Shown: one piece after another, positions 25 through 4,939 of the stretch
Position numbering within the stretch: position 1 is the stretch's first letter
Layout: each line of letters starts with the position of its first letter
Source: a virus
Lineage: Duplodnaviria; Heunggongvirae; Uroviricota; Caudoviricetes
DNA: 4,939 nt
Strand: one strand, 5' to 3'
IMG/VR virus record: IMGVR_UViG_2579778674_000008
Translations under genes and position numbers: made by a program
The notes under the pieces: generated by a model
Told to the model about the DNA's origin: nothing
Seen by the model: only the letters and a program-made list of their open reading frames with translations
Database searches by the model: none

Positions 25-291
25 TTGGTTGTCTGGAGATTCAGGGGGCCAGTCTATTCAGATAAAAACTGTTATCTATGTATACTTTTAAACCCAATCT
101 GTGTAGAGTCTCTGCATAAGATAGTTTGCAGTTGCCGCTTCAGCTTGCGCCATAAACCGCCTGATTTTTGCTGCCACCTGTTAGCATTCCTGTATACCTG
201 AAACGACAATGTTTATCTACGAACTTTAAGAACACCCAAGATAAAAATTGTCAACTATATCATATATAACACATTACTAATTCGAGGCTAT

Positions 292-405
292 ATGAACAGC
301 ATACTGATAATCACATCTCTCCTTATCATATTCAGCATTTTTAGTCATGCCCTAATAAAATTAGGGATTGGCATATCCAATAACCCAGACAAAACCGATG
401 TATAA
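292..405 (+). CDS. Hypothetical small hydrophobic peptide (37 aa, predicted single transmembrane helix)
   Basis: Hand translation of ATG at 292 to TAA at 403-405 gives [42 protein letters not shown] Shine-Dalgarno-like motif sits at 284-287, 4 nt before the ATG. It is below the ORF-track length cutoff. The region is AT-rich, so a hydrophobic ORF could arise by chance. Confidence 0.3.
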
Positions 406-473
406 GTCAACATATCCTGAATCAGACATACAATATCGCAATGAAAATCAATAATATTTTAAGGAATATCTTC

Positions 474-707
474 ATGAAATCAAAAGACACCCTAAAGTGG
501 TTCCCTGCGCAGCTTCCTGAAGTAAGAATTATCCTAGGGGATGCTGTAGTGGAAGTAGCAAAACAGGGAAGACCTATCAATACCAGAACATTGCTTGATT
601 ACATTGAAGGAAACATAAAGAAAAAATCATGGCTGGATAACAAAGAATTATTACAAACAGCGATATCAGTTCTTAAAGACAACCAAAATTTAAATGGTAA
701 AATGTAA
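474..707 (+). CDS. ynaE: Small prophage protein of the YnaE/YdfK family (cold-shock-inducible in E. coli K-12), 77 aa
   Basis: The ORF-track protein from residue 12 (MKSKDTLKWFPAQLPEVRIILGDAVVEVAKQGRPINTRTLLDYIEGNIKK...NLNGKM) matches my recollection of E. coli YnaE (Rac) / YdfK (Qin), which sit next to pinR/pinQ. The ATG at 474 has an AAGGA ribosome-binding site at 461-465 (8-nt spacer), whereas the upstream in-frame ATG at 441 has none, so 474 is the preferred start. I cannot distinguish the Rac and Qin paralogs from sequence alone. Confidence 0.7.
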   Translation: MKSKDTLKWFPAQLPEVRIILGDAVVEVAKQGRPINTRTLLDYIEGNIKKKSWLDNKELLQTAISVLKDNQNLNGKM

Positions 708-1023
708 TATAATAAACTTACTTTTTTATCATTTTTCCACTTTAACAACATTTTGCTCCACTTTTCCACGACCAAACAACTTGAAATCTGGTTAAAATAA
801 CACGCAACACTATTCTTCTTCCTTGAGTCCGCCCGGAACTCGAAAAACAAACCGAGTCAAAGCCATTTTTCACAAAATCGATTTTGGGTCTCACCAAAAT
901 TACGGGGTTGCATACGCATTCGTTTATTTTCGAACGTGTACATACAAATATGCACAAAAATAATCATAATTATTTTCTGAGATGCATTATGATATGAACA
1001 CCAATTTCGTATAGAGTCTCACT

Positions 1024-1614
1024 ATGTCTCGAATTTTTGCTTACTGTCGGATATCAACGCTGGATCAGACCACCGAAAATCAACGCCGGGAAATCGAAAG
1101 TGCAGGTTTTAAAATCAAACCTCAGCAAATAATCGAAGAACACATTAGCGGCTCAGCAGCAACCAGTGAGCGTCCTGGTTTTAACCGGTTGCTTGCTCGC
1201 CTGAAATGTGGTGATCAATTGATTGTGACAAAACTGGATCGCCTTGGTTGTAATGCAATGGATATCAGGAAAACAGTGGAACAACTGACCGAAACAGGTA
1301 TCAGAGTGCATTGCTTAGCATTGGGTGGCATTGACCTGACCAGTCCAACAGGAAAAATGATGATGCAAGTAATTTCAGCAGTCGCTGAATTTGAACGAGA
1401 CCTTTTACTTGAACGCACTCATTCCGGGATAGTAAGAGCCCGCGGCGCAGGGAAACGTTTTGGTCGACCACCTGTGTTAAATGAAGAACAGAAACAGGTG
1501 GTATTCGAACGAATTAAGTCAGGTGTAAGTATAAGTGCCATTGCCCGGGAATTCAAAACCTCGCGGCAAACCATTTTAAGAGCCAAAGCAAAACTTCAGA
1601 CACCTGACATATAA
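1024..1614 (+). CDS. pin: Serine recombinase, Pin/Gin/Hin-type DNA invertase (PinR/PinQ-like), 196 aa
   Basis: The N-terminus [15 protein letters not shown] carries the resolvase/invertase catalytic motif (Arg9, Ser11). The C-terminus has a helix-turn-helix ([21 protein letters not shown]). The 196-aa length and the position next to tfa/stf match lambdoid prophage Pin invertases. I recognise the protein as PinR/PinQ-like from memory but cannot tell which paralog. Confidence 0.95.
1104..1122. promoter_or_regulatory. Inverted repeat AGGTTT-taaaatc-AAACCT inside the 5' part of pin; candidate Fis-binding / recombinational-enhancer element
   Basis: Read directly: 6-bp arms with a 7-bp AT-rich spacer, about 80 bp into the pin coding sequence. 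The embedded 15-mer GTTTTAAAATCAAAC fits the loose Fis pattern (G at -7, C at +7, AT-rich centre). Hin/Gin/Cin enhancers are known to lie within the first ~170 bp of the recombinase gene. The functional assignment is speculative. Confidence 0.2.
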
Positions 1615-1620
1615 AAAATA

Positions 1621-1635
1621 ATCTCGGTGTGAGAT
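1621..1635. terminator. Short hairpin ATCTC-ggtgt-GAGAT between convergent pin and tfa; weak candidate bidirectional terminator
   Basis: A 5-bp stem with 5-nt loop lies 7 bp after the pin stop codon. On the minus strand it is followed by TATTTTTTAT, a good U-tract for the stf-tfa transcript. On the plus strand it is followed only by GCTTT. The stem is short and AT-rich, so confidence is low. Confidence 0.25.
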
Positions 1636-1711
1636 GCTTTACGTCTTCCAAGCCCCCTTCCTTGCCGTAAATGGAAAGATACATCTAATTATAGAATTTA
1701 TATGTTTTACC

Positions 1712-2287
1712 CTACGGCAGTGCTGGCCATTCAATATCCTGTGCAGTTGACGTATCAACACGGTTCAGCAATACCCGATACTTTTTCCATGCTTCCAGCA
1801 ACGAGATTTCTTCCTCCGTTGCAATTTCCAGATCTGCAGCATCCTGAAGCGGCGCAATATGCTCACTGGCTACCTGCATCAGGTTGTTTTTTGTTTCTTC
1901 CGCCTCCCGGATCCGGAACAGTTTTTCTGCTTCCGTATCCTTCACCCAGGCTGTGCCGTTCCACTTCTGAAACTCCCCTTCCGGCGATAACCAAGTAACA
2001 TTTTCCGGTAACGGACCGAGTTCAGAAATAAATAACGCGTTGCCGGAAGCCACGTCATAAACCGTTTTACCCCGATGATCTTCAACGAGATGCCACGATG
2101 ACTCATCACTGTTGAAAACAGCCACGAAGCCAGCCGGAATATCTGGCGGTGCAATATCGGTACTGTTTGCTGGCAGACCTGTATGAGGCGGAATATATGC
2201 ATCACCTTCACCAATAAATTCATTAGTTCCGGCCAGCAGATTATAAATTTTTATGGTCCGTGGTTGTTCACTCATTCTGAATGCCAT
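1712..2287 (-). CDS. tfa: Tail fibre assembly protein Tfa (lambda Tfa / TfaR / TfaQ / TfaE family), 191 aa
   Basis: The protein [54 protein letters not shown]...DIEWPALP is the lambda-type Tfa chaperone as I recall it. A GAGG ribosome-binding site lies 8 nt upstream on the minus strand. Its ATG (2287-2285) overlaps, as TAATG, the stop of the out-of-frame stf C-terminal remnant, which is the canonical stf-tfa translational coupling arrangement. Confidence 0.93.
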
Positions 2288-2391
2288 TATGCAAGCCTCA
2301 CAATATAGTTAAATGCGATGTTTTTGACGGTGTTTTCCGCGTTACCAGCAGCGTTAACGGTGATGGTGTGTCCATGTGAGCCAATCGCAAC
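2287..2391 (-). pseudogene. stf: Displaced original C-terminal coding segment of stf ([34 protein letters not shown]), now out of frame
   Basis: The 67-aa ORF 2287..2490 (-) ends in ...[34 protein letters not shown], the conserved lambda-type side tail fibre C-terminus as I recall it. It is in the +1 frame relative to the main stf ORF and joins it exactly at the 10-bp duplication. Confidence 0.6.
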
Positions 2392-4939
2392 CAATCGCAA
2401 CGGAGTGCGTATGAGCACCAATACCGACAGTATGCGCGTGTGCACCTGCAGATGCTGCTGTGCCGGACAGTGAGTGGCTATGATTACCATCTGTACTGGT
2501 ATTAGCTAACCACCCCGTAGACATACCTACTGAGCCTTGTACACCCCAGGTATTTTGACCTGAGCTTGTATAACCATATTGATAAGTATCTTTAAAAACA
2601 CTGGGGTTAAATCGACGGCCATCTCTATGGCTGTGATTACCAGCTGCATTCGTGCTGCCACTTAAACTATGGGTATGCGCACCAGTGTTATTCGTGGATT
2701 TAGTGCCGTAATCAAACGACGATGTGGTTTTCGTCCCCAAATCCGTACTTGATGCGCTGGCGCTGTGGGTGTGCGATTTAATGCCGTCCTGTTCCTGAGA
2801 CAATACGGCCCGACCACTGGCAGGTTTGCCCTTAATCGTCCAGCCACGCATATCAGGGATCACGCCTGACGGATAAGCCGCTGCAAGTTTCGGGTATGCA
2901 GATTTGTCAAAAGTCTGCCCCTGCATCAGGGCATAGCCAGACGGAACGGTATCTGATGGCCACGGGATTGGTGCACCGACTGGATAAAACTCTGCAGGAG
3001 GATGAGCCGAGGTGTAAAGCTGCGCCCACGGCGACCAGTTTGCGTCGGTCGTATCCCGTCGTGAACGAATAAATGCCGGAGCATGAGCACCGCTTGTACC
3101 ACTCCAGCCGATGAGTAACTCACCTTCGCCAACGGCTGTCATCCCTTTCAGGTGAATGATATTTCCATACGCTGTTGGATATCCGTTGTTATACACCTCG
3201 TATAACTCAAGACCTGTTGCCCCCTGCGTATTGTCTGTCAGCGCGGTTACCCGACCTTTTGAAGACAGATTAACTGATGATACTGCTGTTCCACCTGACG
3301 GTAACGCCCCGATCTCTGATGCCGTTGGCTTATTTCTGGAGTTATAGTCCCTTCGCCAGCCAGGTGAATAATCTGTTCCGTGATTAATATAGGTAAACTG
3401 GGCGTTAGTTGTTCCACCACCAGTGGAGGTGGTCGGTGTGGTAATGCGGATCGTCATCGCTGACTTTATCCCCATTACTTCAATGACAGCTCCGGCGAGA
3501 TGAATATTACCGCAGTCAGTATCAGTAATGATTTTATTATTGCCATAAGACCAGGAACCCTTGCACATCCAGTAGGGATGGTTAAATGCTCCCTGAGAAT
3601 CCAGCCACTCGATAAACTGTGCAGTCGTCCAGTTTCCTGTTATTGTGCTTACTGACCCACCAAAGGCACGGCAGGCACCAATATTTTTCGTAAAGGTGTC
3701 TTTGCCAGGGATATCCGCACCGTTCTGATCTTTCTGCAGACGTTTCTCAGCATTGTCATAGGCTGTTTTTACTGCCTTTGGTGTCGCGGCAAGCGTTTCA
3801 GACGTGCTGTTGGTCGCGCTGCTTAGCTGGATTATCCCTTTCTGTGCTGTCGTTGCATCCTGTGCGGTGTATTTCCCGTTAGCCAGGTCATACGCGGCCT
3901 TAACGGCTTTTGGTGTTGCCGCCAGTGACTCGGAAGTGCTGTTAGTCGCACTACTGAGCTGTACTATCCCCTTTTTCGTCGTGCTCGCATCCTCAAGCGC
4001 CACAGCGGATGCAATATCCTCTGCCCGTTTTGCTGCTGTCTCGGCGCGCGTTGCTGCGGATTCCGCCGTACTTTTGCTCTGTGCTGCCGCCGTCGCACTG
4101 CCAGCTGCCTCTGTCGCCTTCGTGGATGCTGTCGTGGCGCTGCCCTTCGCTGCTGACGCTTGTCTGGTCGCCTCATCTTTTGAAGCAGACGCCGATGAGG
4201 CCGATGACGCCGCCGAACTGGCGGACGATGCGGCAGCCGTTTTTGAGGATTCTGCGCTGGTTTCCGACGCTTTCGCGTTCGTTTCGGATGTCTTCGCTGC
4301 GGAAGCTGACCTCGCTGCTGCGCTGGCCTGTTCAGTGGCTTCGCCAGCCTTCGTTGTGGCTGTTGAAGCGGATGATGCGGCGCTTTCTGCCGACTTTCCG
4401 GCAGCGGTGGCACTGGCTGAGGCCTGCCCGGCACTTGTTGACGCGGCACTGGCAGACGACGCAGCCGCTGTTTTTGAGCCTGCCGCAGCTGAGGCGCTCT
4501 GTCCCGCTGCCGTCTCAGAAGACCTGGCGTTCGTCTCGGACGTTTTTGCTGCCTTCGCGGAATTTGCTGCCGCCGTTGCCGAGGAAGCTGCGCTACTGGC
4601 GCTCGAGGATGCGTTCGTTTCTGATGATTTTGCCGCCTCTTTTGAAGCCGACGCATCCCGGGCTGAGGTGGCAGCTTCTGACGCTTTCGTAGTCGCGGTG
4701 GATGCAGAAGTGGCTGCTGATTGTTGTGACGCTGCAGCATTCGTTTCTGACGTTTTCGCGGCTCTGGCACTGGTAGCTGCCGCGCTTTTTGAGGACTCTG
4801 CAGCGGCAGCACTTTTTTCCGCTTCAGTGGCCTTTGTTGATGCCGTTCCTGCGCTGGAAGACGCTGACTGAGCCGACGAAGCGGCCTGTCCGGCTGACGT
4901 GCTGGCTGCGCGTGCTGAGCCTGCAGCATCAGTCGCATG
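2354..4939 (-). CDS. stf: Side tail fibre protein Stf (lambda Stf / StfR-like); 5'-partial, with C-terminus altered by frameshift
   Basis: Hand translation of the minus strand from 4939 down to 4004 is in the same frame as ORF 2354..4003 and has no stop and no ATG/GTG/TTG, which explains why the ORF track starts at the GTG at 4003. It reads [28 protein letters not shown]...[21 protein letters not shown]..., the Ala/Ser/Thr/Lys-rich repeats typical of StfR-like fibres. Downstream are two copies of the [14 protein letters not shown](S/T)LAATPKAVK tail fibre repeat and a C-terminal array of G-x-H-x-H motifs. The true start lies beyond the window edge. Confidence 0.9.
2381..2400. repeat. Perfect 10-bp tandem duplication CCAATCGCAA-CCAATCGCAA (minus strand TTGCGATTGG x2) causing a frameshift in stf
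   Basis: Read directly: 2381-2390 and 2391-2400 are identical. Removing one copy restores a continuous frame ...[40 protein letters not shown] ending at 2287. With both copies the frame reads ...[17 protein letters not shown] and stops at 2354-2356. Confidence 0.9.
3755..3970 (-). repeat. Two copies of the conserved phage tail fibre repeat ([28 protein letters not shown] / [28 protein letters not shown]), 132-bp period
   Basis: The motif occurs twice in the Stf translation, 44 codons apart, and the underlying DNA is a near-identical direct repeat. The same repeat shows up in the antisense ORF as [12 protein letters not shown] / [13 protein letters not shown]. Confidence 0.65.
4004..4939 (-). 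repeat. Low-complexity Ala/Ser/Thr/Lys/Glu-rich repetitive coding region of stf (degenerate AAKTSETNA-type modules)
   Basis: Across 312 hand-translated codons there is no Met, Val, Leu, aromatic or Cys residue. Degenerate DNA modules recur, for example gcgttcgtttcggatgtcttcgctgc near 4275, 4526, 4611 and 4737. The GCN-rich coding strand produces long open frames on both strands. Confidence 0.6.

Follow-up and report, generated by a model that had tools for sequence, protein, structure and literature searches.

A 10-nt tandem duplication that most likely disrupts the side tail fibre gene of a lambdoid prophage, or possibly reflects an assembly error

Why should a side tail fibre gene (stf) with no other visible damage carry a perfect 10-nt repeat 30 codons ahead of its natural end, and does that repeat silence the fibre, toggle it or merely record a fault in assembly? 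The question is raised by a 4,939-nt stretch of tailed-phage DNA (IMG/VR record IMGVR_UViG_2579778674_000008), referred to here as the window. It is proposed, with a probability of about 60%, that the duplication is a strain-specific loss-of-function frameshift in a lambdoid prophage of the Rac/Qin/mEp460 type.

The stf gene occupies 2354-4939 on the minus strand, its 5' end lying beyond the window, and encodes Ala/Ser-rich repeats, two Phage_fiber_2 repeats, a Collar domain (PF07484, E=5.4e-12, exceeding the curated cut-off) and a gp37-like His-x-His needle. Directly downstream on the same strand lies the cognate chaperone gene, the tail fibre assembly gene tfa (1712-2287; Caudo_TAP, PF02413, E=2.7e-43), which is identical in nucleotide sequence to tfaR of the nearest relative, L001 (NZ_AP022215.1). 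The identification of the pair as a lambda/Rac-type stf followed by tfa, originally made from the letters alone, is thus borne out. On the plus strand, a serine invertase gene of the pinR/pinQ type (pin, 1024-1614; Resolvase and HTH_7 domains) adjoins tfa, and a ydfK/ynaE-type prophage gene annotated as a cold shock protein (474-707) and the gene of a small ynaM/ynfT protein (292-405) are also present. The window begins with the terminal 56 nt of an IS2 element (1-56); the IS2 junction at 56/57 was found in no complete Escherichia coli genome. The remainder of stf is intact, and the 4.9 kb hold no other indel or damaged open reading frame. This lack of further indels argues against noisy sequencing.

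The repeat lies at 2381-2400 and consists of two perfect copies of CCAATCGCAA, or TTGCGATTGG on the coding strand; Tandem Repeats Finder agrees, calling 2381-2401 with a period of 10, a 100% match and 2.1 copies. It is the sole perfect tandem duplication in the window with a unit of 7-15 nt. Of 1000 dinucleotide-preserving shuffles of the window, 5 produced any perfect tandem duplication whose unit was 10 nt or longer, and the expectation for a 10-nt unit under an i.i.d. model is 0.0047. Relative to all homologues the repeat adds 10 nt, and the original prediction placed it correctly at 30 codons before the natural end of the gene. The reading frame shifts after ...HTHSVAIG and runs for 11 further codons to a premature TAA at 2354-2356 (frameshifted tail 2354-2389, minus strand), leaving the natural 3' end, 30 codons and a TAA at 2287-2289, stranded out of frame at 2287-2379. 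That stranded segment encodes the seventh His-x-His motif (SHGHT, 2365-2379) and the conserved collar-closing C-terminus (2290-2340), so the actual frame retains six such motifs against seven in the one-copy reconstruction, and the product ends otherwise. The frameshift, the early stop and the loss of the conserved tail together with the last motif were all predicted, and the reading frames confirm them. With one copy, as also predicted, the natural stop overlaps the tfa start codon as TAATG at 2285-2289; in the window the overlap is replaced by a gap, which had been foreseen but measures 66 nt (2288-2353) rather than 67. A GAGG stands 8 nt upstream of the tfa ATG, and tfa is probably still translated from this Shine-Dalgarno sequence of its own.

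A single copy of the 10-mer is carried by L001, K-12 stfR, lambda, phage mEp460, PhiR30_1 (a plaque-forming phage with a split stf) and T4 gp37; the expectation that lambda, K-12 stfR and other intact genes would carry one copy therefore held upon alignment. Over 4,883 nt the window differs from L001 by three mismatches and one 10-nt gap, the inserted sequence being TGCGATTGGC on the coding strand, an inexact copy of TGCGATTGGT; if the gap is placed at 2381-2390 instead, four substitutions separate the two. The repeat is in this way perfect inside the window yet imperfect as an insertion relative to L001. As all the substitutions are synonymous, the one-copy protein is identical over the window to the 1023-aa Stf of L001, which is present on 194 public contigs.

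The two-copy form, by comparison, was seen only in the window. The region is carried by 3,716 complete E. coli genomes at 6,025 places, all of which gave one-copy matches only; a two-copy 100-mer query returned full-length matches of at most 90% identity, the value expected of a 10-nt gap. A 44-nt junction query had no match in 5,426 complete E. coli genomes, 50,697 phage records or 72,556 plasmids, and the exact two-copy junction was missing from species-representative genomes, metagenome contigs and viral contigs, so that no homologue with the two-copy arrangement was found in any collection searched. Twelve matches to the bare 21-mer junction were rejected as unrelated environmental sequences. 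At the protein level, the inferred 1004-aa truncated Stf, whose N-terminal 143 aa were borrowed from L001 for the exact-protein look-up, had no match among about 15 billion proteins, and a look-up of the exact 67-aa downstream ORF for other carriers of the duplication was negative. Among 135 related proteins retrieved, 117 have NYIVRLA as their C-terminus, the rest being contig-end partials or one separate frameshift, and none ends in CDWLTW... as the shifted frame does. An indel that is not a multiple of 3, with a premature stop, against five aligned homologues and thousands of genomes makes the original pseudogene call for stf appropriate.

What is lost can be judged from the structure of T4 gp37 (residues 785-1026, PDB 2XGF), to which the C-terminal 230 aa of the one-copy Stf align with E=7e-86 and with all seven His-x-His sites in register. 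Both proteins have a collar domain, which falls within the aligned part of 2XGF, both genes have a tfa/gp38-type chaperone gene downstream, and the last 30 natural residues of Stf are nearly those of gp37 (28 of 30 identical). By this homology the fibre chain would descend through a six-stranded needle stapled with iron, reach the receptor-binding tip and then turn back up, its last 17 residues closing the collar domain. Domain limits were taken from PMC6957217, in which the tip subdomain of gp37 is residues 932-959 and residues 1010-1026 close the collar domain. The window's protein is cut at the equivalent of G996/S997, and the lost residues correspond to gp37 997-1026, a stretch that comprises the seventh His-x-His iron site, the final part of the ascending stem and the strand by which the collar domain is closed. 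The equivalent of the tip subdomain with its receptor-contacting loops, 42 aa encoded at 2501-2626 on the minus strand, lies upstream of the repeat and keeps its frame. From the 2XGF alignment and the published limits it follows that the duplication does not hit the receptor-binding tip, and this part of the original prediction has to be abandoned. In sequence the tip segment is unrelated to that of T4, which it exceeds by 14 aa over the wider aligned tip segment; a different receptor specificity is therefore probable.

A truncated Stf would lack the seventh iron site, the last 13 residues of the stem and the collar-closing strand, and since all three are lost the trimer should fail to fold or assemble; any particles formed would be without working side fibres. 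Could the shortened protein nevertheless assemble and work, the frameshift being near-neutral or altering only the end of the fibre? The tip equivalent and six of the seven His-x-His motifs remain in frame, and the new tail happens to hold HHH. We consider this very improbable, however, as the lost segment holds an iron site and completes the collar domain, its 30 residues have stayed 28/30 identical to gp37 in fibres that have otherwise diverged, the ending it would produce was absent from the relatives fetched, and those iron-binding histidines of gp37 that were tested are essential (PMC6957217). No experiment in which Stf or gp37 was shortened by 30 C-terminal residues was found.

The way in which the duplication arose is constrained by the base beside it. 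Position 2380, which adjoins the repeat, is G in the window (C on the coding strand, Gly codon GGC), whereas L001, K-12 stfR, mEp460, PhiR30_1 and lambda all have A (codon GGT). GGC is the form of other stf paralogues (1,510 records); it is absent from the complete genomes closest to the window's tfaR-linked sequence and was never found in this tfaR-linked background. No one-copy ancestor with GGC was found in that background either, the best candidates reaching 98.9% over 90 nt and 99.8% over 523 nt, and the window contains no template for the new junction elsewhere. Replication slippage, of which the repeat had been called the signature, does not in its plain form account for this adjacent base change. 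Because base 2380 matches other stf paralogues, an exchange between paralogues describes the event better than simple slippage, and we suggest that a paralogous stf copy was engaged, 10 nt out of register, by template switching or gene conversion. A slipped exchange of this kind, or a contig-join artefact, fits better than plain slippage.

The same base is left unexplained if the duplication is ascribed to a transposable element that generated a 10-bp target-site duplication on insertion and has since disappeared, leaving a footprint. Some insertion sequences make target duplications of about 10 bp, and IS2 is nearby at 1-56; against this, IS2 target duplications are 5 bp, the loss of an insertion sequence in E. 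coli normally leaves no clean duplication, no remnant lies between the two copies, and an element at the repeat site flanked by the 10-mer is absent from large collections. Such an origin appears the least probable of all those considered here, and it was set aside, together with the idea of recoding, for want of a supporting feature.

A sequencing or assembly artefact, also mentioned in the original prediction, has been strengthened by the public draft contigs and is a real though lesser possibility. Assembly or finishing may have joined two pieces just where stf paralogues resident in one genome begin to differ (GGT versus GGC), leaving a 10-nt overlap, TTGCGATTGG, untrimmed; the real genome would then be one-copy and its stf intact. 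Draft contigs stop exactly at ...GTTGCGATTGG: contigs ending precisely at ...CCGTTGCGATTGG were encountered in at least 20 samples (L021) and again in L022, the last approximately 80 nt of whose stf are identical to the window, and one further contig (L020) ends at ...GATTGGC. The window can be read as a piece ending in ...GTTGCGATTGG followed by one beginning with TTGCGATTGGC..., the C after the second copy has the form of other stf paralogues, never seen in this tfaR-linked background, and the two-copy form occurs nowhere else in the collections searched. The coincidence of the repeat edge with both a draft-contig stop point and a paralogue-distinguishing base is also what an untrimmed contig join would be expected to produce. 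On the other hand, De Bruijn assemblers cannot make k-mers that no read contains, and overlaps between their contigs are k-1 (at least 21 nt), not 10. Long-read errors are mostly homopolymer indels rather than 10-nt duplications. Furthermore, the window resembles one raw contig between repeats, one of its ends being formed by 56 nt of IS2, and its other parts are error-free and near-identical to L001.

If the duplication is real, it might be asked whether it acts as a reversible ON/OFF switch, as the original prediction entertained, in which precise deletion between the 10-mers restores stf and particles with and without side fibres are mixed. In favour of this, removal of one copy gives exactly the 1023-aa protein, tandem duplications can revert by slippage, and a fibre-bearing and a fibre-less state are both potentially advantageous. 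Mutation-driven stf polymorphism has already been proposed for lambda (PMC2762979), and lambda x Rac crosses yield recombinants with another stf/tfa copy at about 2e-6 (PMC3945230). Yet there are only 2.1 copies of a 10-nt unit in place of a many-unit tract or long homopolymer, and the rates of reversion expected of a 10-nt duplication lie far below those of known phase-variable loci. No variation in repeat number was seen among strains, the two-copy form being found in none of the 3,716 genomes with the region (6,025 places) and in no phage, plasmid, metagenome or viral collection, which indicates that the repeat site is not a recurrent hot spot. The locus resembles contingency loci in that a change in repeat number could in principle toggle the frame, and differs from them in having only two 10-mers and in showing no polymorphism of length among thousands of genomes. 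We therefore find no support for the idea; a switch is very unlikely, and the duplication is not a programmed one. A variant in which the two-copy form is the OFF state, loss of a 10-mer or repair from a paralogue restores the fibre, and lysogens release fast-adsorbing fibred particles mixed with slow fibre-less ones, hedging between liquid and biofilm-like habitats, seems more doubtful still. The Pin-type invertase gene beside tfa recalls the G/Gin, C/Cin and P/Pin systems of Mu, P1 and e14, but the frameshift is unrelated to inversion: the short window gave no match to a consensus pattern for Hin/Gin-type crossover sites and contains no long inverted repeat, second stf'/tfa set or invertible segment.

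Loss-of-function frameshifts, by comparison, have precedents. According to PMC12617516 and PMC7291167, citing Hendrix and Duda (1992), lambda PaPa carries a single-base deletion in the middle of stf (orf-401 / orf-314). It shares with the window the gene family, the order lom-stf-tfa and a lambdoid stf frameshift upstream of tfa that abolishes dispensable side fibres; it differs in that lambda PaPa loses the whole distal half of the protein, whereas the window's 10-nt insertion lies 30 codons from the end with the tip part in frame. In Stf+ lambda, stf frameshifts were found in 15 of 21 spontaneous large-plaque mutants (Gallet, Shao and Wang 2009, PMC2762979), and all but one of the indels are gains or losses of 1 nt in homonucleotide runs, the exception (GP20) being a single-base deletion. 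In contrast to the window's, none of these mutations duplicates several bases, and the one listed nearest the end of the gene is about 104 codons from it. Frameshifts in stf are tolerated and common, further examples being the split stf of plaque-forming PhiR30_1 and the frameshifted protein cluster P0041, which has 194 members. Since lambda can dispense with its side fibres, which only accelerate adsorption, such a mutation would be tolerated or even selected for, and the duplication most likely inactivates a dispensable side fibre.

Taken as a whole, the duplication is most likely a strain-specific pseudogene mutation of an ordinary kind, with an assembly error as a possible alternative, and matters little beyond annotation. 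The stf of the window should be annotated as a pseudogene or the locus re-checked. Because the conserved 3' end of stf is common to several prophages per genome, it serves both as a recombination zone and as an assembly break point, and small indels there need confirmation at the level of reads. Working side fibres should not be taken for granted when the host range of this prophage is predicted, and for fibres of the gp37/Stf type in general the C-terminal end of the polypeptide should not be equated with the receptor-binding tip.

The window covers the right-hand end of a lambdoid prophage of the Rac/Qin type. It opens with 56 terminal nt of an IS2 element (1-56), followed on the plus strand by ynaM/ynfT (292-405), ydfK (474-707) and a Pin-type serine invertase gene (1024-1614); the latter adjoins the tail-fibre assembly gene tfa (1712-2287, minus strand), and the long side-tail-fibre gene stf occupies the same strand from 2354 to beyond 4939. 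Of the 5,426 complete E. coli genomes searched, NZ_AP022215.1 matched best; in it the same genes lie beside uspF/ompN and are followed by lom and J; this gene order is common to K-12 Rac and the isolated phage mEp460_ev081. The exact IS2/prophage junction occurs in none of the complete E. coli genomes; in six, IS2 is placed 246 nt further out, adjoining ydfJ, where the surroundings are of Qin type. Possibly the window represents a complete short-read contig with repeats at both ends. Wholly within the tfa coding sequence, at 1746-1944 on the minus strand, the window matches the Rfam family IS009 (RF02111) over its full length, scoring 220.9 bits where the gathering score is 117. Alleles differ in the length of the Ala/Ser-rich repeat part of stf (Stf is 1023 aa in NZ_AP022215.1 and StfR 1120 aa in K-12), and this part is overlapped by an opposite-strand ORF (3804-4871, plus strand, 355 aa) and by one in another stf frame on the minus strand (3964-4938, 324 aa), both most likely by-products of biased repeat composition.

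The tandem 10-bp duplication reported in stf is present as a perfect CCAATCGCAA x2 at 2381-2400. No other perfect tandem duplication in the window has a unit of 7-15 nt, and of 1000 dinucleotide-preserving shuffles only 5 contained one whose unit was 10 nt or longer. Read in the coding direction, the stf frame is lost after ...AHTHSVAIG and ends at a premature TAA (2354-2356). The natural last 30 codons, with their TAATG stop/start overlap with tfa, were found out of frame at 2285-2379, as the original prediction held; 66 nt (2288-2353), rather than 67, separate the new stop from the tfa ATG.

In an alignment of stf 3' ends, all six homologues (NZ_AP022215.1, K-12 stfR, mEp460, phage PhiR30_1, lambda and E2865) carry one copy of the 10-mer, as had been anticipated. 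A 100-nt query spanning the repeat matched 3,716 genomes, with full-length matches at no more than 90% identity, the value expected from a 10-nt gap. A 44-nt junction query, able to seed on the two-copy form only, had no match in complete E. coli genomes, phages or plasmids, and the exact junction was not found in species-representative genomes, metagenome contigs or viral contigs; the few matches to the bare 21-mer of the junction were unrelated sequences. Window positions 57-4939 differ from NZ_AP022215.1 by three mismatches and a 10-nt gap (four substitutions if the gap is set at 2381-2390), and all substitutions are synonymous. The one-copy reconstruction of Stf is a 1023-aa protein present on 194 public contigs, and the inferred 1004-aa truncated form (its N-terminal 143 aa taken from NZ_AP022215.1) is absent from ~15 billion proteins. 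The lack of a two-copy relative, together with this near-identity, indicates that the duplication is either recent and private to its source or not real.

The neighbouring base bears on its origin. Position 2380 is G in the window (coding strand C, codon GGC), and the codon is GGT in NZ_AP022215.1, K-12 stfR, mEp460, PhiR30_1 and lambda. Compared with the nearest genome, the window has TGCGATTGGC inserted, which copies TGCGATTGGT imperfectly. The plain replication slippage proposed originally does not account for this: on a GGT sequence it would yield ...GGTTCAC, whereas the window has ...GGCTCAC. GGC is frequent in other stf paralogues (1,510 records, E2865 for example) and was never seen in the tfaR-linked background, the stf type of the window and NZ_AP022215.1 (best matches 99.8% over 523 nt and 98.9% over 90 nt). 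The window sequence would be reproduced exactly if a template switch or gene conversion had used a GGC paralogue with a register shift of 10 nt.

Three public draft contigs (L020, L021, L022) stop exactly at ...GTTGCGATTGG or ...GATTGGC (window 2391-2403). The stops at ...GTTGCGATTGG fall directly before the GGT/GGC polymorphism; one contig recurs in at least 20 samples, and in one the last ~80 nt of stf are identical to the window. Contigs ending here mark the site as the point where co-resident stf paralogues diverge, and assemblies break at the conserved stf 3' end, which behaves as a multi-copy repeat. If two sequence pieces were joined at this edge without trimming, the second copy could have arisen that way. 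We consider such an artefact the less likely reading, however, since the remainder of the window is error-free, the window has the look of a single raw contig with repeats at its ends, and a de Bruijn assembler has no means of inventing the junction k-mers. We favour a real mutation, with a probability of roughly 60%.

The last 230 residues of Stf align with T4 gp37 785-1026 (PDB 2XGF; E=7e-86), the seven His-x-His motifs are all in register, and 28 of the final 30 residues are identical. In gp37 the collar domain comprises 811-881 and 1010-1026, the stem 882-931 and 960-1009, and the tip 932-959; its histidines bind seven irons, and the iron-binding histidines tested are essential (PMC6957217). 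With the numbering confirmed on residues named in that study, the frameshift falls at G996/S997, so that the seventh iron site (H998/H1000), the last 13 stem residues and the entire collar-closing segment are lost. The tip-equivalent segment (2501-2626) stays in frame, and the earlier placement of the frameshift in the receptor-binding tip is thus anatomically wrong. By analogy with gp37, the expected result is the same as if the tip were hit: the fibre would probably be unable to assemble, from which we infer loss of stf function.

It had also been suggested that the two-copy state is the OFF state of a reversible fibre switch. Deleting one copy precisely would give back the wild-type protein unchanged, and recombination with another stf/tfa copy offers a second repair route (~2e-6 in lambda x Rac crosses; PMC3945230). 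Reversibility, however, is a generic property of any tandem duplication, and switching by copy loss is not borne out: the repeat has two units only, its copy number did not vary across thousands of genomes, and the duplication did not turn up again in any collection searched. Nor does the pin gene next to tfa help: within the window there was no match to a Hin/Gin-type crossover-site pattern, no long inverted repeat and no second fibre/chaperone set, and the gene resembles the orphan invertases of K-12 Rac and Qin.

Broken stf genes are not unusual. A cluster of 194 member sequences (P0041) is defined by another frameshift, in which 1 nt is deleted after ...NHSHSLSG, ~50 codons upstream in the same stf 3' end (window ~2440-2460); it represents an independent, widespread inactivation of this gene end. 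Many database proteins (P0024, P0028, P0040, P0044 and P0052) have the stf C-terminal module attached directly to an unrelated N-terminus (terminase large subunit, major capsid protein or ParB-like); deletions in decayed prophages may have fused the two, or the shared repeat may have been mis-assembled. In PhiR30_1, a plaque-forming isolated phage propagated on E. coli C, stf is annotated in three pieces (3501-6894); its last 414 nt show a 1-nt length difference. Laboratory lambda also carries an stf frameshift, and side fibres make adsorption ~10-30-fold faster with plaque number unaffected (PMC12617516). Among spontaneous large-plaque mutants of Stf+ lambda, 15 of 21 had stf frameshifts (PMC2762979). 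The original observation is confirmed and its interpretation partly supported: the duplication is either a new allele of a well-known kind, the frameshifted prophage stf, or an assembly error at a known trouble spot. A broken stf is tolerated by viable phages, and mutations of this kind have already been proposed to maintain fibre polymorphism (PMC2762979).
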